64,000 nucleotides of DNA from contig QILQ01000043.1 of assembly GCA_003233455.1 (NCBI GenBank), positions 442 through 64,441 of the forward strand. The letters are read 5' to 3'. This document shows, piece by piece, positions 42,438 to 55,585 of the stretch. The position numbers and the translations under genes are program-made. The stretch is from Candidatus Zambryskiibacteriota bacterium. GTDB taxonomy: Bacteria; Patescibacteriota; Minisyncoccia; Phycocordibacterales; WO2-35-19. Under the pieces are notes generated by a model. The model saw only the letters and a list, made by a program, of their open reading frames with translations, did not search any database and was not told the DNA's origin. How positions within the stretch are numbered: position 1 is the first letter of the stretch; every line of letters starts with the position of its first letter.

Positions 42438-43547
42438 ATGAGTTTTATTTCCGATATTTTTAAAAAGAAAAAAGTAAGTGCTTTAGGTATTGATATAGGT
42501 TCCTCTTCTATAAAGATAGTTCAACTTCAAAAAAAAGGAAGTAAAGCGATATTGGAAACATATGGGGAACTTTCTTTAGGTCCTTATAGCGGAGTTTCAG
42601 TTGGTCAATCCACTAATTTGCCTGTTGAAAAAATAATACAAGCAATGAATGATTTACTTAATGAAAAAGAAGTCGCCATTACCACTAAATTTTGCGGTTT
42701 AGCTATTCCTTTCAAAGCAAGTTTACTCTCAATTATACAAATGCCAGATATAGGACAAAAAGAATTGACTTCTATGGTGCCGATAGAAGCTCGCAAATAT
42801 ATACCGGTGCCGATATCGGATGTTACCATTGATTGGTCTATTGTGCCTAAATCTGAAGTGGTAGAAGATTCTTCTAAAGAAAAAACAGATAAAAATAAAG
42901 TAAAAACCGTAGATATTTTATTGGTAGCTATTCATAATAATATTATCAATCAATATAAAGAAATTGTCTCTAAAACTCAACTTAACGCTAAATTTTTTGA
43001 GATAGAAGTCTTTAGTTCAATGAGAGCTATTCTTGAAGGCATCAAAGGTCCTATTATGATTTTTGATATGGGAGCTTCAACTACTAAATTGTATGTGGTG
43101 GATAGGGGTTTAGTTCAAAATTCACACACCATAAATCAAGGTTCTCAGGATATAACTTCAAATATTGCCAGAGTTTTAAATGTTTCAACAGAAGAAGCGG
43201 AAGTTATAAAAAGATCTGTTGGTATGGGTAAAACTGTGGATGGAGTAGATCTTTCAGAAATGGTATTAGTGATTGCTGGCAATATTTTTGCTGAAGCGAA
43301 TAGATTTCTTTTTGATTTTCAAAAGAAAAAAAATAAAAATATAAAATCAGTATTTTTGACTGGTGGCGGTTCAGCTCTTTTGGGTTTTAGAGATTTGGCT
43401 GCTCAAAATTTTAAAGTGGAAGTAATTTCCGCGGACCCTTTTGAAAAAGTGGAAACTCCCGCCTTTTTGGAAAATATACTTAAAGTAACAGGTCCTGAAT
43501 TTACCGTGGCTGTCGGCGCCGCTCTTCGTTGTTTGGAAGAGATTTAA
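42438..43547 (+). CDS. pilM: Type IV pilus assembly protein PilM (actin-like ATPase fold)
   Basis: ALGIDIGSSSIKIVQL N-terminus. Confidence 0.75.
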   Translation: MSFISDIFKKKKVSALGIDIGSSSIKIVQLQKKGSKAILETYGELSLGPYSGVSVGQSTNLPVEKIIQAMNDLLNEKEVAITTKFCGLAIPFKASLLSIIQMPDIGQKELTSMVPIEARKYIPVPISDVTIDWSIVPKSEVVEDSSKEKTDKNKVKTVDILLVAIHNNIINQYKEIVSKTQLNAKFFEIEVFSSMRAILEGIKGPIMIFDMGASTTKLYVVDRGLVQNSHTINQGSQDITSNIARVLNVSTEEAEVIKRSVGMGKTVDGVDLSEMVLVIAGNIFAEANRFLFDFQKKKNKNIKSVFLTGGGSALLGFRDLAAQNFKVEVISADPFEKVETPAFLENILKVTGPEFTVAVGAALRCLEEI

Positions 43548-43648: not shown

Positions 43649-43903
43649 ATGAATCAAATAACATTTACAGCAAAAGAAGCAAAAAATAATTTTGGTAGGC
43701 TTTTAGATGAAGCTCGTCGTTCTCCTGTGGCTATAAACAAAAACGGCAGAAAAGTTGCTTTTGTGGTTTCTTATGAAGATTTTTCTCAATTTGAAGGAAT
43801 GGTAGATTCTTATTGGGGCAAAAAAGCTAAAACGGCAATAAAAAAAGGATATCTGACTGTTGCTGAAAGTAAAAAATTTGTAGATTCTATTTTAAATGCT
43901 TAA
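43649..43903 (+). CDS. Phd/YefM-family antitoxin
   Basis: N-terminal ITFTAKEAKNNFGRLLDEARRSPVAINKNGRKVAFVVSYEDF typical of Phd/YefM. Confidence 0.55.
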   Translation: MNQITFTAKEAKNNFGRLLDEARRSPVAINKNGRKVAFVVSYEDFSQFEGMVDSYWGKKAKTAIKKGYLTVAESKKFVDSILNA

Positions 43904-44168
43904 TATTAGATTTTCAAAATTATCAAAGAAATTTGTAGAAAGAGTTCCAATAAAACACAGAAGACAAATTGTTGAAAAATCTGTAAGTCTAAAAAATAAT
44001 CCTCTACCTTCGGATAGTAGGGCTATGAAGGGATTTCCGGGTTATTTTCGTGTTGATATTGGGGAATATAGGATTATTTATACAATTTCAGAATCTAAAA
44101 TAAATATTGAACTAATTGGTAAAAGAAACGACGACGAAGTTTATCGTAAATTTAAAAGACTTATGTGA
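43896..44168 (+). CDS. RelE/ParE-family toxin
   Basis: GYFRVDIGEYRIIYTI...IELIGKRNDDEVY; 8-nt overlap with antitoxin. Confidence 0.65.
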   Translation: MLNIRFSKLSKKFVERVPIKHRRQIVEKSVSLKNNPLPSDSRAMKGFPGYFRVDIGEYRIIYTISESKINIELIGKRNDDEVYRKFKRLM

Positions 44169-44239: not shown

Positions 44240-44812
44240 ATGGCACCAAACTTTCAATCATCATTCATACCCAAAGGACCGGTTACTCAAGAGGTTTTTA
44301 AAAAGAAAAAAACCAGTTTGTTTGGTATTTTAGTAATTTTTTTGTTTATCGCCTCAATAATCATTTCTATCGGTCTGTTTGTTTACAAAGGTATTGTTAA
44401 AAATGATATTAAAAATCTTCAATCTCAACTAACTGTGGCAGAAACAAAAATAGATAGAAAAGAAATCAATGAGATGTCTCAATTTAGCAAAAAATTAGGT
44501 TTTACCAAGTTAATTATTTCCAAACATCAAGTAGTTTCAAATTTTATGGACACTTTAGCTTCTTCTACTGTTAGCTCGGTTTATTTTGATGATTTTAATT
44601 ATGATAATTTGAAAAAAGGCAATAATTTGACTGTTGTTTTGCATGGCAAGGCTACTGATTATGCGAGTGTCGCTTTACAAGAAAATGTATTTTCTCAAAA
44701 TAAATATTTTAAATCGGTAACATTTTCCAATCTGACTTTAACAGACAAAGGTCTTGTTTCTTTTGATTTAACCATTTCTGTTGACCCACGAATTTCTGTT
44801 TATTCTCCGTAA
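44240..44812 (+). CDS. PilN-like bitopic pilus assembly protein
   Basis: Single N-terminal TM + coiled coil; position after pilM. Confidence 0.4.
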   Translation: MAPNFQSSFIPKGPVTQEVFKKKKTSLFGILVIFLFIASIIISIGLFVYKGIVKNDIKNLQSQLTVAETKIDRKEINEMSQFSKKLGFTKLIISKHQVVSNFMDTLASSTVSSVYFDDFNYDNLKKGNNLTVVLHGKATDYASVALQENVFSQNKYFKSVTFSNLTLTDKGLVSFDLTISVDPRISVYSP

Positions 44813-47931: not shown

Positions 47932-48959
47932 ATGGATGATTTAAATAAACTTATAGAACTTATGATTAAAGAAGGAGCTTCAGATTTGCATATTTCTGAA
48001 GGTAGAAATCCTTATATTAGGGTCTCCGGTCAATTAACACCTCTTTTAAAATATCAAAAATTTACTAAAATTTTGATAGAAAATATTGCCAACAAAATTA
48101 TCCCCGAATCTAAAAAAATCATTTTCAAATCTTCTCAAAGTGCTGATTTTGCTTATAGCCATAATGGCAACAGATTTAGGGTTCATGTTTTTTTGGACCA
48201 GCAAAGAATTTGTATGACTTTTCGTTATATTCCCAAAAAAATACCGTCGCTTACCGAATTAAATTTGCCAAATGATTTGGAAAATTTTGCCAGATTAAAA
48301 TCGGGTTTCTTTTTAGTGGTAGGTCCGACCGGACATGGTAAATCAACCACTCTCGCTTCTTTAATAGAGACTATATAATTACCATAGAGGATCCAATAGA
48401 ATATTTGTTTACTGCCAAGAAATCTATTATTCATCAAAGAGAAATTGGGTTGGATACACCAAATTTCGCTTCCGCTTTGCATGATTCTTTTAGAGCTGAC
48501 GCGAATGTTATTATGGTTGGCGAAATGAGAGATATTGATACTATAGCTACCGCGGTTTCTGCCGCGGAAACTGGTCATCTAGTGCTTTCTACTCTGCATA
48601 CTAATAATGCTGCTCAAACAGTTGATCGTATTATAGATTCATTTTCTGCCAGTCAACAAAACCAAGTCCGTATTCAATTAGCTGCTTCTTTATCTGGCAT
48701 CTTTTCTCAAAGACTTATTCCCAAAATATCAGGTGGTCTCATTCCGGCTTATGAGCTTTTAGTGAATAATGTGGCTGTTTCAAATCTTATTAGGGACAAG
48801 AGAACTCACGAATTAAATACTATAATTGAAACTGGGTCGCAAGAAGGTATGATTGATTTCAATAGATGTTTGGTGGAAAAAGTAAATAAAGGCGAAATCA
48901 GTATTGAAAATGCTTATCTTTATTCCACTAATCCGCGTTCTCTGGAAAAAATGTTATAA
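47932..48959 (+). pseudogene. pilT: Twitching-motility ATPase PilT split into two ORFs (47932-48378 and 48405-48959) by an apparent 2-bp insertion near 48366-48372
   Basis: Walker A VGPTGHGKSTT in ORF1; ITIEDPIEY...REIGLDT...HLVLSTLHTN in shifted frame; removing 2 nt gives LIDYIITIEDPIE. Confidence 0.7.
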
Positions 48960-48963
48960 CTTT

Positions 48964-50175
48964 ATGCTTTTTTTATACCAAACAATCAATAAAAACGGAG
49001 AAAGAAAAAAGGGCAGTATAGAAGCTTTTAGTATGGATGCGGCTATAACTTCCTTGCAAAGAAAGGGTCTAGCTGTTTCTTCTATTAAACCAAAAGAGGA
49101 TGATGATGGGGATATTCTTAAAAAAATTCCTTTTTTTAATAGAGTTTCCAATAAGGAAGTAGTTATACTATCAAGACAACTCTCAACTCTTTTTGAAGCT
49201 CAGGTTTCCGCTTTAAGAGTTTTTAAACTTATTGGGACTGAATCCGAAAATCCAACTTTAAGAAAGCATCTTCTTGAAATTGTTGATGATTTACAGGGCG
49301 GATCTTCCATATCGTCCGCTCTCTCCAAACATCCGGATGTATTTTCAGATTTTTATGTGAATATGATTAAATCCGGGGAAGAATCCGGTCATATAGACCA
49401 AACTTTTTCATATTTAGCTGATTATATGGATCGTACTTATGAAGTTTTATCTAAAGCCAAAAACGCACTTATTTATCCGGCTTTTGTTATATTTACTTTT
49501 ATCGCTGTTATGGTCTTAATGTTTACAGTTATTGTGCCTAAAATCTCTCTTATTATAAAAGATTCTTCTCAAGAAATACCCCTTTACACAAAAGTTGTTT
49601 TTTGGATAAGCGATTTTTTCACTAAAAATTGGATACTAATGCTCTTAGCTCTTATTGTAGGTATAATAGGTCTTATTTGGTATGGTAGAACCAAAGAAGG
49701 TAGGAGACAAATTTCAAATGTCAGACTTTATATTCCTTATGTCGGAGATCTTTATCGTAAATTGTATCTTTCCAGATTTTCTGATAATATGAGCACCATG
49801 ATTCTTTCTGGTATTCCAATGCTTAAAGCTATTGAAGTAACTTCTTCTATTATAGATAATGAAATATACAGAGAAATTTTAGTTGAGGCTGCCACTAAAG
49901 TCAAAGCGGGTCAAGCACTTTCGGCGGCTCTCGGCGATAGAGAGGAAATTCCAAGCATTTTAACCCAAATGGTGAGAGTGGGAGAAGAAACCGGAGAACT
50001 TGGTAATATTTTAAAAACAATGTCAAAATTTTATCAGAGAGAAGTTATGAATGCGGTAGATACTTTGGTTGGTATGATTGAGCCTATTATGATAGTAGCT
50101 TTAGGAGTTGGGGTTGGTATTTTATTAGCGTCTGTTCTTATGCCTATATATAATATAGCCGCAATGGCATCATAA
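48964..50175 (+). CDS. pilC: Type IV pilus platform protein PilC (GspF family)
   Basis: Two T2SSF repeats; start at internal Met MLFLYQTINKNGERKKG favoured. Confidence 0.8.
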   Translation: MLFLYQTINKNGERKKGSIEAFSMDAAITSLQRKGLAVSSIKPKEDDDGDILKKIPFFNRVSNKEVVILSRQLSTLFEAQVSALRVFKLIGTESENPTLRKHLLEIVDDLQGGSSISSALSKHPDVFSDFYVNMIKSGEESGHIDQTFSYLADYMDRTYEVLSKAKNALIYPAFVIFTFIAVMVLMFTVIVPKISLIIKDSSQEIPLYTKVVFWISDFFTKNWILMLLALIVGIIGLIWYGRTKEGRRQISNVRLYIPYVGDLYRKLYLSRFSDNMSTMILSGIPMLKAIEVTSSIIDNEIYREILVEAATKVKAGQALSAALGDREEIPSILTQMVRVGEETGELGNILKTMSKFYQREVMNAVDTLVGMIEPIMIVALGVGVGILLASVLMPIYNIAAMAS

Positions 50176-50627
50176 TGAATAAATTTAAAAATAAAAAAGG
50201 TTTTACACTTATTGAACTTCTGGTGGTTATTACCATAATAGGAGTTTTATCCACTATTATTTTAGGCAGTATTTCAAATTCAAGAAATAAGGCTTATAAT
50301 TCAAAAATAGAGCAACAACTTAGCGGTTTTCGCACTGCTGCGGAGATATATTTTACCAATCAAACTCCAAATGGCTATGGTCCAGCCAGCAGTATTTGTA
50401 GTGCGGGTATTTTTAATAATGTTGACCCCATAAATGGCAGTCCCGGTTTATATATAGCGGCAGGCAATCTTCCAGATTTTAGTCAAGTAGTTTGTGGTTC
50501 TACTGATTCATCTTACGCTGTCAAAGCTACTCTGTATTCCGGAAATAAATATTGGTGTGTGGATAATAAAGGATCTTCAAGATTAATATCTGGTGCTATT
50601 GGTAATACGGTTACTTTTTGTCCATAA
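50175..50627 (+). CDS. Type IV pilin (major-pilin paralog)
   Basis: KGFTLIELLVVITIIGVL; C-terminal Cys pair. Confidence 0.75.
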   Translation: MNKFKNKKGFTLIELLVVITIIGVLSTIILGSISNSRNKAYNSKIEQQLSGFRTAAEIYFTNQTPNGYGPASSICSAGIFNNVDPINGSPGLYIAAGNLPDFSQVVCGSTDSSYAVKATLYSGNKYWCVDNKGSSRLISGAIGNTVTFCP

Positions 50628-50709
50628 TGTTTTAATATATACGATGTTTTGCGGAGTGAGAGTGCAACGTGCCTTTAGCCTATTTTTGAAAAAATTTATT
50701 CTTATTATT

Positions 50710-53700
50710 TTAAAGATCAATATTAGTTTCAAAAATTTTATCAAGTTCAAGATTAATCGCTTTTTTTATACTTTCAATTTTTTTATATTTTTCTGCAATT
50801 TCTTTTTGTGCTTGTAAATCAAAATTTTCCTGATTATCAATAGGGATTTGAACTTTAATGTTTTCAATTTGATTTGTACCAAGTTTTTTGTTCCCATAAC
50901 CTTTTGCTTTATCAAAGAATAATGGTTGAATTATGAATTTAATATATTCAAGACAAAGATCATCTTTTCTAGGAATTAAAATGCCACAATGATTGTTTAT
51001 AGTGAAAAAATATTCTTCTTTCTTTTCTTGCAACAAATTCTCTGAATTGCGAACAAATAATTTGCCTGCATAACCATCTACAGACCACGTCAAACAATAT
51101 TGATAATATAAATCATTTTTATTTATTTTATCCAAATCCATTTTCATTAATAATCCTTCATTTTTTGTATTTGATGAATAAACTGGGATGTTACCTTTCC
51201 ATCCATTACCAATTACTCTTTTTTTTGTATAAAATGCGTTACCTTGCTTAATGTTAAAAAGATCATCAATTTTTATCAATTTTGTTTTTTGATCATTTAT
51301 TTTTATCTCAACCATTAAATCCTTGATTTGTTTTTTATATTCTTCAACTTTTTGTTTAACTTCTTTTATTATTTGATATTTATCTAAGATATTTTTTTGA
51401 AAATCTAAATCAAAATCACCATTTGAATCGATTGGTATTTGAACTACAACATCTTTCATGTTTTTCAATGACGATCTTAATCCTCTATCAAATCCATATT
51501 TATGTTTAACTTTCGAAAGTTGTAACATTAAATATTCTGGTAGAATATTATCTGTTAATATTCTAATAACACCACAGTGATCCGTCGTCATAAATGGAGT
51601 GTTTTTTTTGATAAAATTGAATTCAAAATCACCATCAATCCCCCAAATAACAAAATCATTTTCAAAATTTTCTATATTACTTTTAAAATGATAACCAACT
51701 GGATTAAAAACATTAGCACTATAAATTGGAATATTACCACTAATTTTTACTAAATCTTTTTTTACCAACCTTTTACCTATAAATAAATCAAAATATTTCT
51801 TGTCTGATAAAAATATTTCTTTAAAAGAATTTTTTAACTTTTTTTTTTCGCCAAACTCTTTTACAAGCTGACTAAATTCATTAAGAGATTCGGAAATATC
51901 ACCTATCAATTCTCCAAATTCTTGTACTCCAACTATTTTATCTTCTTCTAAAATGCCAAGTTCTATTTTTTCCTCTTTACTCCACCACCTATCAACTGAC
52001 CAATGTTGTTCTGGATTAAATTTATCTATTGATTGAATTTTACATCTTTTATCAGAATTATTTTCAATAAAATATTCTGGACTTCCTTTAAATCCTTTAA
52101 ATAATTTTACAGCTTCTTGTAAATCGTTTTGTTCAATATCAAAACGATAAATATCCCTTGACTCTCCAATCTCACTTACCAAATAAGTAAATACTGGTTT
52201 TTTTTGAATATCTTTTTTGTTTGTTTTCTTTGTAATTGCTAAAATATAAGTTTTCTTTGGAGTAGTGAAAAATGTTTTTATCGGTAGTGAAATAATTCCG
52301 TCAATATAACATTCATCTAAAATAAACTTTCTTAAATTTTTATCATTTTGACGATTTAAAATTCCGTCAGGAATTACTACAAATGCTTTTCCACCTGGTT
52401 TTAATGCTTTCACAATCCACTCCATAAAAAGTCCTTCAACCCCCATAGCATTGATTTTGTAATAATTTTCAAGTTCTCCGTCTTTTTTTATTTCGTCTTT
52501 TAAATTTCCGCTACCACTAGTTACATACGGAGGATTGGTTAAAATTAAATTATATTCATTTTCAACGGGTTCTGAAAGTGTTCCAAGAATAGAATTTGTT
52601 TTAAGAGTAAAGCTATCATTAAATAATTTTGCAAATTCTTGTGTTAGATTTGGATTGTCTTTTATTAAATCAGAAAAATAAATCAGCATATTGGCTTTTG
52701 CCAAAATAATTGTTTTCTGTTCATCTTTATCAAAACCTTTATCAAAGCCATGAATAGCTATCTTTGAAACAATTTTATCTTTTTTAATATTATAAAAATC
52801 TTCAAGTCTTGTCGTTAATGGCTCTAAAAGGAATTTACCAACTCCGCAAGCAGGATCACAAATACTTACTCCTTCCTTTATATCGTCTTTTGCCATTTCG
52901 ACAATAGAACGAACAACTTTTAATGGGGTGAAAAACTGTCCCCAGTTTTTCTTACTAATACTTTCCTTCAAAAAACTCTCAAAAATCTGACTTTTGAAGT
53001 CATAATCAATATTTTCTAATTTTCCATATTTCAGAAATTTATCTAAAACAGTTTTAAAAGTCGTACTATATCCTTTAACAGCTTTTTGATCTTTATTTAC
53101 AAAAATTGTTCCATTGATAATAGTAGTTTTATCTTCTGTGTCTTGTGGAAATAATTGTTTAATTTTTGGACGAATTGTTGTTGCGTAGTGTTCTAATACT
53201 TCGTTTTCTGTATTACCACCATCATACATTTTAATGAGAGTATAAAAATTATGGACTCCTTTTAAAACATCTAAGTCACTAAGATATTTGAAAATGAAAA
53301 GTTCAACAAAAGTATAAAGACAATTTTCAGGAGTTGCTCCACTTACAGACCAAATATCTTGCCAAATGCTTTTTGCCAAATTTGTTGGATTTACAAATTC
53401 TTTTGGTTTTATATTATCAGTTTGCTCATTTATAGAATCATAAACTTTTTTTAATAATTCTGGTAGTTTTTCAGCTCTTGAATCAAATAAAACTTTAATT
53501 TCTTTTCCATTTTCATCTTTAATCCTATTCCCAGTTAAAGCATTTATCCAAATAGCTTCTTTTGTGTCTGTAGCAATAAAAATTTTAGCTCCCAATTTTT
53601 TAGCAACTTCAATTTCCTGTTCAATAGCTTTACTATGATCTTTTGCTGTCTTAAATTTTTTAGGAATTTTATATTCAATAACTGCAATAACATTTTTATT

Positions 53701-53874
53701 CTGTACCATGAGAGCATCAACTTTTTTTCTTTCAAAAGCTCCATAATTAACATTACGAATAATATTTGATTCTTTTAGAGCTTTTACTGTTGTTGCTCCA
53801 ATATTATAAAAATCCCATTTCCCAATTTTCTCTGGGTTTTTTATTAAATCCCTTTGTAGAAGTTCTTCACTCAT
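50710..53874 (-). CDS. Single-chain restriction-modification enzyme: N-terminal PD-(D/E)xK nuclease, gamma-class N6-adenine MTase, two HsdS-like target-recognition domains (Type IIB/IIG-like)
   Basis: D...VIEYK (PD-ExK), FFTP, DPACGVGKFL (motif I), NPPY (motif IV), two TRD-terminal QIPID..FDL..QK.I..KY conserved blocks. Confidence 0.65.
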   Translation of the reverse strand: MSEELLQRDLIKNPEKIGKWDFYNIGATTVKALKESNIIRNVNYGAFERKKVDALMVQNKNVIAVIEYKIPKKFKTAKDHSKAIEQEIEVAKKLGAKIFIATDTKEAIWINALTGNRIKDENGKEIKVLFDSRAEKLPELLKKVYDSINEQTDNIKPKEFVNPTNLAKSIWQDIWSVSGATPENCLYTFVELFIFKYLSDLDVLKGVHNFYTLIKMYDGGNTENEVLEHYATTIRPKIKQLFPQDTEDKTTIINGTIFVNKDQKAVKGYSTTFKTVLDKFLKYGKLENIDYDFKSQIFESFLKESISKKNWGQFFTPLKVVRSIVEMAKDDIKEGVSICDPACGVGKFLLEPLTTRLEDFYNIKKDKIVSKIAIHGFDKGFDKDEQKTIILAKANMLIYFSDLIKDNPNLTQEFAKLFNDSFTLKTNSILGTLSEPVENEYNLILTNPPYVTSGSGNLKDEIKKDGELENYYKINAMGVEGLFMEWIVKALKPGGKAFVVIPDGILNRQNDKNLRKFILDECYIDGIISLPIKTFFTTPKKTYILAITKKTNKKDIQKKPVFTYLVSEIGESRDIYRFDIEQNDLQEAVKLFKGFKGSPEYFIENNSDKRCKIQSIDKFNPEQHWSVDRWWSKEEKIELGILEEDKIVGVQEFGELIGDISESLNEFSQLVKEFGEKKKLKNSFKEIFLSDKKYFDLFIGKRLVKKDLVKISGNIPIYSANVFNPVGYHFKSNIENFENDFVIWGIDGDFEFNFIKKNTPFMTTDHCGVIRILTDNILPEYLMLQLSKVKHKYGFDRGLRSSLKNMKDVVVQIPIDSNGDFDLDFQKNILDKYQIIKEVKQKVEEYKKQIKDLMVEIKINDQKTKLIKIDDLFNIKQGNAFYTKKRVIGNGWKGNIPVYSSNTKNEGLLMKMDLDKINKNDLYYQYCLTWSVDGYAGKLFVRNSENLLQEKKEEYFFTINNHCGILIPRKDDLCLEYIKFIIQPLFFDKAKGYGNKKLGTNQIENIKVQIPIDNQENFDLQAQKEIAEKYKKIESIKKAINLELDKIFETNIDL

Positions 53875-54209
53875 AATTTAAGTTTATTGAAGTAAATATA
53901 TAAATCTACTAATTTTAGTATACAATTATTTTAACTTTTTTACTATACATTGTATTTTTATGTGCCCATTTATTTAATGAATGCAATATGTATGTGAACT
54001 TGGTCAATTAAAAATCTTTAAATTCAAATTTTTTCAAAAATATGTCATATAATAAATACTTTCGCTTGCGAGGAGGACTGGTTATCCACATATTAGCTAC
54101 AAAAAAATTAACGTTTGTTTATAATATATTAAGGCTTGAAAGTGAAAATAAGGTCGATGTTGTCAAGCTTCTCTCTCGAGAGAGCATTAATTAATTTTAT
54201 TTTAAAATT

Positions 54210-54658
54210 ATGTTTAAATTAAGAAATAAAGGTTTTACACTTATTGAACTTCTAGTGGTTATCGCTATTATTGGTATTCTTTCTTCCGTTGTTTTAGCGT
54301 CTCTAAACACCGCTCGTGGTAGAGGTAATGATGCTAAAGTTAAAGCTCAGCTTTCCGGTCTTCGGGTCTTCGTGCCGCTGCTGAACTCTATTATGATGAT
54401 AATCCAACTCAGGGTTATGGTCCCGCATCTTCCAGTTGTACAACTGGTATGTTTGCTAATGCGACTGTTCAAGCTTATATCGCTCCCGCTAATCTTCCAG
54501 CTAACGCTACCCCGGCATGTTTCTCTTCTACCGGTAGTTATGCGGTTACAACCAAACTTCCTGGCGCAGGTGGTGCTAACAAATGGTGTGTTGATTCACT
54601 TGGTGTTTCTAAGCAAGTTATCGGTATCGCTACTTCGGCTGGTTGTCCCGCTTCCTAA
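54210..54658 (+). pseudogene. Type IV pilin paralog inactivated by 8-bp tandem duplication (GGTCTTCG x2 at 54357-54372)
   Basis: N-terminus KGFTLIELLVVIAIIGIL in frame 1; C-terminal pilin homology (KWCVDSLG...) in +2 frame; duplication visible. Confidence 0.65.
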
Positions 54659-54727
54659 ATACCTGACTTATTTTGTTGCCGAACAAAAGCCTCATTTGGA
54701 GGCTTTTGTGTTATTATATGGAAGTAA

Positions 54728-55585
54728 ATGCAATATTTATTTTTAATCATTATTTTTTTATTCGGAACGGCTTTAGGAAGTTTTGTTACTGTGATTGCCA
54801 ATAGGTTCAATACCGGTTTACCTTTTTTTAGAGGTAGGTCATTTTGTTTCTCTTGCAACACCAAACTTCAAAAAAAAGATTTAGTTCCATTATTTTCTTT
54901 TTTATTTTTAAAAGGCAGATGCAGATATTGTAAAAGCAAGATACCCAGAGAAACTTTAATAATTGAGATTTTAATGGGTATTTTATCGGTATTATCCGCT
55001 CTGAAATCCGGTTTTTCAGTTTTTGATTTTTCCTTATTGTCTATTATTAACTATTTGCTACTAACTTTTATTTTTGCCACTATTCTTCTGATTGCTGTCT
55101 ATGATATAAAACATTTTATTATTCCCGATTCTTTTCTTTTTACTCTTTTTCTTTTTTCTTTGTTTTATATTTCTTTATCCAACTTTATCATTCAAACTAA
55201 TATAATAAATAATATATATTCTCTTATTCCTTTTTTCATTTCTTCTATAATTCTAACACTGCCATTCTTGTTAATTTTTGTTATTTCAAAAGGTCGGTGG
55301 CTTGGTTTTGGGGATATTAAATATATTTTAGTTTTGGGTTTTCTGCTTGGGTTTAGTCAAGGGTTGTCGGCTGTAATTTTAGCCTTTTGGATAGGAGCGG
55401 CTTTTTCTTTGATAATTTTATCTTTAAAATATTTTAGGTTACATATAAATTTGCCTTTACTCCGTAATAATTTTACAATTAAATCTGAGATTCCTTTTGG
55501 ACCATTTTTATCAATTGGGATAATAATAAGTCTTTATTTAAATGCTGATTTATTTCAAATACATTCTCTCTTTAATATCTTCTAA
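54728..55585 (+). CDS. pilD: Prepilin peptidase (A24 family) with N-terminal Cys4 zinc finger
   Basis: CxxC...CxxC, catalytic Asp-containing polytopic fold. Confidence 0.85.
   Translation: MQYLFLIIIFLFGTALGSFVTVIANRFNTGLPFFRGRSFCFSCNTKLQKKDLVPLFSFLFLKGRCRYCKSKIPRETLIIEILMGILSVLSALKSGFSVFDFSLLSIINYLLLTFIFATILLIAVYDIKHFIIPDSFLFTLFLFSLFYISLSNFIIQTNIINNIYSLIPFFISSIILTLPFLLIFVISKGRWLGFGDIKYILVLGFLLGFSQGLSAVILAFWIGAAFSLIILSLKYFRLHINLPLLRNNFTIKSEIPFGPFLSIGIIISLYLNADLFQIHSLFNIF

Follow-up and report, generated by a model that had tools for sequence, protein, structure and literature searches.

Single-chain Type IIB restriction-modification (R-M) enzymes such as AloI, TstI, PpiI and CjeI carry, in this order, an N-terminal PD-(D/E)xK nuclease, a gamma-class methyltransferase and two C-terminal HsdS-like target recognition domains (TRDs), have no separate methylase, specificity (S) subunit or HsdR, and show reassortment of TRDs between homologs (PMC3874165). 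In BcgI and BsaXI the same modules are divided between two R-M subunits and one S subunit, and HaeIV, which has one TRD, is a homodimer with a symmetric site. BpuSI has been mapped as nuclease (residues 6-174, with E21, D60, E76 and K78), connector (175-289) and methyltransferase (293-579) (PMC3185434). Here a gene for a protein of the AloI-like plan was analyzed in a 64,000-nt stretch of a Candidatus Zambryskiibacteriota bacterium genome (assembly GCA_003233455.1, contig QILQ01000043.1, positions 442 to 64,441 of the forward strand; the whole stretch is called the window below). The gene is an uninterrupted open reading frame (ORF) of 1054 aa at 50710..53874 on the reverse strand, within a pilus locus. 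As judged from sequence and predicted structure, its product is probably a self-contained fused restriction-modification-specificity (R-M-S) enzyme; the gene organisation is that of Type IIG, and the behaviour most likely that of Type IIB. A preliminary description of the same DNA, made from the letters alone, had given the enzyme as 50627-54210; the gene lies inside that span, but the ends of the span are the boundaries of the neighbouring genes. The identical protein was present in two public assemblies, one of them a 39-kb Joint Genome Institute (JGI) contig (L002) sharing 23 kb with the window at zero mismatches and two indels. The gene and its domains were delimited as follows.

50710..53874, reverse strand: complete ORF, predicted single-chain R-M-S restriction-modification enzyme (1054 aa).
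53425..53874, reverse strand: predicted PD-(D/E)xK-fold nuclease domain, aa 1-150 (E3/E4, K51, D53, E67-x-K69, D103, W109, N111).
53005..53397, reverse strand: helical connector, aa 160-290 (all-helical in the model; position of the BpuSI connector; 73% mean identity among homologs).
52069..53001, reverse strand: gamma-class N6-adenine DNA methyltransferase, aa 292-602 (PF02384, E=8e-36; 80% mean identity among homologs).
51805..52068, reverse strand: linker, aa 603-690, with a long helix (aa 650-675) into the specificity module (model secondary structure).
51415..51804, reverse strand: TRD1, aa 691-820 (Pfam Methylase_S, E=1e-9; internal repeat with TRD2).
51316..51414, reverse strand: conserved-region helix 1, aa 821-853, a coiled-coil spacer (model helix 823-852; the 857-aa one-TRD homologs end here).
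50830..51315, reverse strand: TRD2, aa 854-1015, hypervariable (Methylase_S, E=1e-13; identity to homologs mean 31%, minimum 17%).
50713..50829, reverse strand: conserved-region helix 2, aa 1016-1054 (model helix 1020-1049).

The N-terminal domain was modelled alone (aa 1-158; predicted local distance difference test (pLDDT) score 90.2, predicted template modelling (pTM) score 0.85) as an alpha-beta-beta-beta-alpha-beta core in which D53 starts one strand and E67-x-K69 ends the next. The core fold, D53, E67-x-K69 and an upstream acidic residue correspond to those of the PD-(D/E)xK superfamily. The PD-(D/E)xK domain of the preliminary description is therefore retained as a prediction from fold and motif, and the residue loss on alignment that it had named as evidence against a nuclease was not seen. 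E3, D53, E67 and K69 were each present in 120/120 close homologs; in a distant set made up of 36 full-length representatives and the window protein (37 sequences, 31-52% identity), E3, D53 and K69 were present in 37/37 and E67 in 35/37. Among the 36 distant full-length members, P0130 and P0250 have another residue in place of the motif glutamate (S, in ISNK, and Q, in VQYK, vs IExK); they may be natural nuclease-dead, methylase-only derivatives. Mean identity to close homologs was 68% for the nuclease domain, 73% for the connector, 80% for the methyltransferase and 31% (minimum 17%) for TRD2; a conserved nuclease core together with a hypervariable TRD2 is the pattern expected of a working R-M enzyme with diversifying specificity. 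An exhaustive search with the nuclease domain alone against 1.84 billion representatives returned 226 clusters, a narrow sequence family. BpuSI and DrdV were the closest structural matches, both of the nuclease domain and of the overall layout. Set against the BpuSI map, the window protein (E3/E4, D53, E67 and K69; regions 1-150, 160-290 and 292-602) has near-identical layout and spacing; its connector is the equivalent of the HsdM N-terminal domain or of the BpuSI connector.

The methyltransferase region is covered over aa 292-602 by Pfam N6_Mtase and contains motif I (CDPACGVGKFL, aa 339-349) and motif IV (NPPY, aa 447-450), each kept in 120/120 close homologs. Motif I stands before NPPY and the TRDs are C-terminal (after aa 690); the order is therefore that of the gamma class, as first described. 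The best PADLOC models were Type I methyltransferases and a Type IIG R-M fusion, and sequence matches of this region in the PDB were HsdM of StySJI and of EcoKI and RM.BsaXI (E=2.5e-9). No Pfam match to the C-terminal 400 aa was obtained when the full-length protein was scanned; scanned as two pieces, both gave Methylase_S (E=1e-9 and E=1e-13). TRD1 and TRD2 align with each other as an internal repeat (28% identity, E=2e-14), and the block VQIPID..FDL..QK.I..KY is part of it, in agreement with the earlier recognition of two HsdS-like TRDs in one chain from their QIPID..FDL..QK block. In the full-length AlphaFold model (pLDDT 82.7), TRD1 is followed by a 30-residue helix, TRD2 and a second 30-residue helix, and this predicted TRD-helix-TRD-helix plan is that of a Type I HsdS subunit. 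Foldseek matches of the full-length model included BpuSI (1134 columns), DrdV and BsaXI, all fused enzymes, together with HsdM proteins and an HsdS (1ydx). Nuclease and methyltransferase are thus fused in one ORF, as in Type IIG gene organisation, and the HsdS-like two-TRD module (domains, repeat, model and the 1ydx match) is that of Type IIB architecture. Assignment to MAD2 of the MADS system was tried and rejected (NF047738, 99.8 bits vs a cut-off of 720; no multi-gene mad neighbourhood).

Homologs of the protein number in the thousands in public records, from many phyla, and fall into size classes of ~700, 860-900 and 1010-1085 aa. A 706-aa member is followed by an overlapping gene for a 356-aa Methylase_S protein, which is the BcgI/BsaXI layout; 857-aa members end directly after TRD1 and its helix, which is the HaeIV layout; and the window protein, with both TRDs fused, has the layout of AloI, TstI, PpiI and CjeI, a correspondence at the level of architecture (table of Loenen et al. 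2014, PMC3874165). Since the same family occurs in BcgI-like, HaeIV-like and AloI-like forms, the window gene would be a BcgI-like system in fused form rather than a Type I methylase with additions, and the three layouts are the strongest argument for that choice. The likeness to AloI- and CjeI-type single-chain Type IIB enzymes proposed in the preliminary description is accordingly right at the level of architecture (PMC3874165) and is strengthened by the split forms. With BcgI and BsaXI the family shares the modules, the split form and a sequence and Foldseek match to RM.BsaXI; in the window protein, unlike these enzymes, the S module is fused to the R-M part, so that one R-M unit goes with two TRDs, where BcgI and BsaXI have two R-M subunits to one S subunit. 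The layout of HaeIV equals that of the 857-aa members, and the window protein differs from it by a second TRD and helix, and so would presumably act as one specificity unit on a bipartite site that is asymmetric.

A separate HsdR gene nearby had been named in the preliminary description as evidence against a self-contained enzyme. No HsdR or helicase was found in the 64-kb window, where this gene and LigA are the only ORFs of >600 aa; the ten largest unannotated ORFs of the window were mostly housekeeping genes, one had no Pfam match, and none was a helicase or nuclease. The annotated sister contig L002 likewise contained no helicase or HsdR, nor did nine homolog neighbourhoods in unrelated organisms, where the surrounding genes were glycosyltransferases, ribosomal-protein genes, SMC/FtsY, toxin-antitoxin pairs and transposases. 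At the level of gene content the enzyme gene is solitary in the window and in the nine homolog contexts, as for restriction and modification by a single protein, and the separate HsdR of a Type I system is missing from both.

In 20/80 homolog loci (L094-L173) the enzyme gene is preceded, at a distance of 6-15 bp, by the end of a gene for a 107-aa helix-turn-helix (HTH)/XRE protein, and the same gene is present at L003:7671-7994 and L004:7671-7994. It looks like the controller (C) protein of an R-M system. The position directly upstream is the usual one for controllers, which restrain the nuclease on entry into a new host. They are known chiefly from classical two-gene Type II systems, and it may merit attention that they regularly accompany a single-chain R-M-S enzyme here.

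The steps proposed for an active enzyme follow the biochemistry of BcgI, AloI and TstI (PMC4027205, PMC3874165). By this analogy each of the two TRDs would recognise one half of a site that is bipartite and probably asymmetric, and the methyltransferase would flip out and methylate one adenine per half-site, leaving host DNA protected. On unmethylated DNA, such as that of a phage, the enzyme would oligomerise (TstI and AloI are tetramers needing two sites), and nuclease domains with one active site each, using Mg2+ and S-adenosylmethionine (SAM) as cofactors, would make double-strand breaks at fixed distances to either side of the site and so excise a fragment of ~30 bp. The role would be one of general defence against phage and foreign DNA. 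In genome surveys of Candidate Phyla Radiation (CPR) bacteria, as they are cited in PMC12455944, CRISPR is mostly absent and R-M is thought to be the main defence.

Confidence differs between the parts of this reading. That the window gene encodes an active self-contained R-M enzyme is likely from its sequence and model; given such an enzyme, two-sided (Type IIB) cutting is by analogy only a little better than an even proposition. Several points weigh against the reading as a whole. The N-terminal sequence profile gave no meaningful match to a solved nuclease among PDB sequences, so that a nuclease is assigned here from the fold, the geometry of the motif and conservation. Pfam returned for this domain sub-threshold HSDR_N matches only, and Foldseek with the isolated domain returned nucleases at E 0.02-0.08 (probability 0.87-0.89) mixed with non-nuclease folds. 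No biochemically characterised family member was found, the public names being just 'N-6 DNA methylase' or 'type I M protein'. No controller gene or remnant was present in the 335-bp gap upstream of the window gene. The protein, likened to AloI and TstI by architecture, is ~200 aa shorter than they are (1054 vs ~1250 aa; TstI 1251). We infer two-sided cutting from the architecture and from the BcgI-like split members, and the stoichiometry problem raised for AloI and CjeI, one R-M unit per two TRDs, holds here too (PMC3874165).

The alternative that survives best, although unlikely, keeps the fused enzyme active but has it cleave to just one side of its site, as the Type IIG/IIL enzymes BpuSI, MmeI and DrdV do. 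The closest structural matches, BpuSI and DrdV, are one-sided cutters, and one nuclease and one methyltransferase per chain serving two TRDs would suit such a mode. BpuSI, DrdV and MmeI differ from the window protein, however, in having a single TRD not of the HsdS type, continuous sites and one-sided cuts, and their nuclease domains have no detectable sequence similarity to that of the window protein. The one-sided IIG/IIL enzymes in Loenen 2014 (PMC3874165) have a single TRD and continuous sites, and the enzymes with an HsdS-like two-TRD module in the same source (BcgI, BsaXI, BaeI, CspCI, AloI, PpiI and TstI) all cut on two sides; the BcgI-like split R-M and S forms of the family point the same way.

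Somewhat less probable again is a fusion of methyltransferase and specificity module only, in which the N-terminal domain would be a structural or regulatory relic and the protein an orphan m6A methylase with an epigenetic or protective function. All members are named methylases in public annotation, solved nucleases do not match the nuclease domain in sequence, Foldseek support for it is weak, and the window copy is without a controller gene; the replacement of E67 in P0130 (S) and P0250 (Q) means that loss of activity does occur in the family. A relic would nevertheless not be expected to retain E3, D53, E67 and K69 in all 120 close homologs and almost without exception in the 37 distant sequences, or to be under constraint as strong as that on the connector. 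Fold, motif placement and domain order are those of BpuSI, where D60 and E76 are mutagenesis-tested catalytic residues, and a harmless methylase would not need the controller-type HTH gene found at a quarter of homolog loci.

The R-M-S gene is foreign and horizontally inserted: its DNA has the lowest GC content of the window, it is absent from 80 related pilus loci and it lies in a discrete insert with an inverted repeat. The PilC-PilD gap is 4553 bp in the window vs ~1.2 kb in relatives with 82-85% identical PilC, and none of 80 related pilus loci carries the enzyme gene. GC content is 26.2% in the insert vs 32.4% in the rest of the window; that of the ORF (26.4%) is the lowest of 305 equal-size windows, and its GC content at third codon positions (GC3) is 15% vs 20-30% in neighbouring genes. 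DNA similarity to homolog loci ends at the ORF, with the exception of L001, where it continues 67 bp further upstream, so the transferred core is, on sequence comparison, the ORF with about 67 bp of upstream leader. The insert begins directly after the stop codon of pilin A and ends just before a conserved leader of pilin B. The parts of the insert are as follows.

50640..54080, no strand: inserted segment of ~3.44 kb as compared with the unoccupied site of the closest relatives (junction alignments place each boundary to within about 10 bp).
53875..53941, reverse strand: 67-bp promoter-proximal leader travelling with the gene (about 79% identical to L001, an unrelated 2.4-Mb genome).
50681..50697, no strand: left arm of a perfect 17-nt inverted repeat, TATTTTTGAAAAAATTT, inside the insert.
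54026..54042, no strand: right arm of the perfect 17-nt inverted repeat, AAATTTTTTCAAAAATA, inside the insert.

The 64 kb contain exactly two copies of the 17-nt sequence. No repeat longer than 14 nt arose in 5000 composition-matched simulations, and among 623 equivalent placements in the real sequence the true one alone reached 17 nt. A comparable 15-nt pair, which shares the 9-nt core (TATTTTTGA), is present in L001 at equivalent offsets; the arms are perfectly complementary within each locus and differ between the window and L001. Perfect repeats of 16 to >80 nt flank the gene in 6/74 further homolog loci, against a background of 7-10 nt. These six are L123, L144, L145, L146, L150 and L172, and their repeat sequences differ between loci; at L146 (9180-9660 and 12624-13104) an inverted repeat of up to ~480 nt surrounds the homolog. 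For all R-M types, transposon-like units flanked by inverted repeats have been described (Furuta, Abe & Kobayashi 2010, PMC2853133), among them a BcgI-like one whose repeats measure 26 bp. The window locus resembles these units in its perfect inverted repeats around the gene and in having no transposase within the unit, and is unlike them in having no short target-site duplication (none was found at the insert or at the repeat arms), in arms that lie ~40 bp inside the inferred boundaries and in arm sequences that vary by locus. A scan of the insert for promoters and terminators gave matches no more frequent than in shuffled sequence (AT-rich DNA), and an Rfam scan of 50000-55000 gave no match. 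As tracts for phase variation there were T8-T10 runs only, typical of the composition, and no hsdS-like shuffling cassettes were found nearby.

An extended form of the proposal would combine these observations into a compact, sequence-distinct Type IIB lineage with three subunit layouts that crosses phyla as a bare gene with inverted repeats and no transposase, is perhaps moved by its own double-cutting nuclease and, in the ultra-small genomes of CPR bacteria, favours type IV pilus loci (the window and L092 being two independent cases). As a whole this is quite improbable; if true, the mechanism of mobility and the link between restriction and DNA uptake would both be new.

Position within the pilus locus was considered separately. 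As the preliminary description had it, the gene is inserted on the opposite strand between tandem pilins. The pilin B gene, called a pseudogene at 54210 in that description, does carry a frameshift in the window, but the 8-bp duplication responsible is missing from the otherwise identical L002, where the gene is intact; removal of one GGTCTTCG copy restores the intact 146-aa pilin B of L002. The flanking genes and the corresponding zone in relatives are listed here.

50175..50627, forward strand: pilin A, 150 aa, immediately left of the insert (PF07963 N_methyl).
54210..54658, forward strand: pilin B, frameshifted by an 8-bp tandem duplication (GGTCTTCG x2, 54357-54372); intact, 146 aa, in L002.
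L016:12988-14333, L020:13103-14375, L017:10743-12678, L052:13798-14493, L053:12168-12839 and L045:8146-11710: variable-zone loci.

In related Patescibacteria the zone from PilC to the prepilin peptidase is variable. It contains 1-4 tandem pilins and cargo of unrelated kinds, namely an AbiEii toxin gene and its putative partner, a glycosyltransferase cluster, a UPF0047 gene and, at three loci, IS200-like Y1 transposases. This cargo between pilins marks the zone as a general insertion hotspot, and the insert landed in such a zone between tandem pilin genes of a host that, from the relatives of its PilC, is a Zambryskibacteria-like member of the Patescibacteria. A second, independent adjacency to pilus genes was seen in a low-GC organism that is only distantly related: at L092:71-6175 the gene for a homolog with 72% identity to the enzyme precedes PilB-PilC by 46 bp on the same strand, and PilB and PilC there share 39% and 33% identity with those of the window. 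Pilus genes were found near none of 80 further homolog loci (593 kb of flanking DNA). A general association of the family with pilus loci was therefore rejected (0/80 pilus loci, 0/80 homolog loci, one extra case at L092), and there may be a CPR-specific bias in placement.

Functional coupling to the type IV pilus or to DNA uptake, in which the enzyme would cut incoming DNA for nucleotides or screen it and be retained in pilus loci for this reason, is very unlikely. It would draw on the adjacency at L092, on the competence mediated by type IV pili and Com proteins in Saccharibacteria (PMC10633639) and on R-M systems as a proposed nucleotide route for epibionts (PMC12455944). Yet neither the related pilus loci nor the further homolog loci bear out such a link, the pilin zone of relatives accepts unrelated cargo in general, and the opposite strand means that the enzyme gene is not co-transcribed with the pilus genes. 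Transformation, moreover, imports single-stranded DNA, a poor substrate for such enzymes. A meaning of the placement for DNA uptake, which the preliminary description had raised conditionally, is unsupported; the insertion is unique to this lineage among the 80 related pilus loci compared. Because of the two 0/80 counts, the hotspot and the strand, the position looks incidental and appears to be without special meaning.

The most improbable alternative makes the protein the M-S part of a Type I system, with the gene for the HsdR translocase-nuclease at another place in the genome. It is in keeping with the best core sequence matches (Type I HsdM proteins, the closest relatives of the methyltransferase), with the HsdS-like TRD-helix-TRD-helix module and with the coverage of 64 kb of genome, but is opposed by the absence of any HsdR-sized window ORF except this gene and LigA (the other large ORFs being housekeeping genes), by the absence of helicase and HsdR in the nine homolog neighbourhoods, by the movement of the gene as a single unit and by its own conserved N-terminal nuclease domain, which Type I M subunits lack, with no HsdR partner and no sign of ATP-driven translocation.

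Enzymes with the architecture of AloI and TstI are already known, as are the mobile form (Furuta et al.) and R-M systems that Patescibacteria acquired horizontally (PMC12455944). The novelty is modest and lies in a specific, widespread family, apparently uncharacterised and publicly annotated as methylase only, that occurs in all three subunit arrangements and is ~200 aa more compact than AloI and TstI. Its recognition as a probable self-contained restriction enzyme corrects inventories of defence systems, chiefly those of CPR/Patescibacteria. Natural variants with no, one or two fused TRDs form a series in which to study how one R-M unit serves two TRDs, the question posed by AloI and CjeI (PMC3874165). 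The family may be of use for engineering new specificities through TRD swapping, and the enzyme, if active, would be a practical barrier to transforming these bacteria.

Other features of the pilus cluster were recorded. The conserved untranslated leader of pilin B (54118-54209) contains a TATAAT box, a stem (AAGCTTGA...TCAAGCTT) that encloses GGTCGAT, which is invariant, and a hairpin (CTCTC-TCGA-GAGAG), followed by an AT-rich tract that runs to the ATG. Its 14-bp palindrome (54171-54184) is found exactly, as a single copy, upstream of a pilin in 24/80 related loci; some loci have extra hairpins in the loop, and covariation is weak, with one compensatory pair. No Rfam match was obtained for the leader, which may be a pilin-specific regulatory RNA or operator. 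The retraction ATPase PilT (47932-48959) is split by a 22-bp deletion relative to L002 (at 48372/48373) into ORFs of 148 and 184 aa; PilT of L002 is intact and has 349 aa. The sole two differences between the window and L002 over 23 kb are thus frameshifts in pilus genes, and the PilT deletion and pilin B duplication may be real loss-of-function variants (e.g., phage-selected) or assembly artefacts. A Phd/YefM-ParE toxin-antitoxin pair at ~43649-44168 (forward strand), between PilM (42438-43547) and a PilN-like gene (44240-44812), was recognised from the Pfam annotation of L002 and is another small insertion in the pilus cluster.

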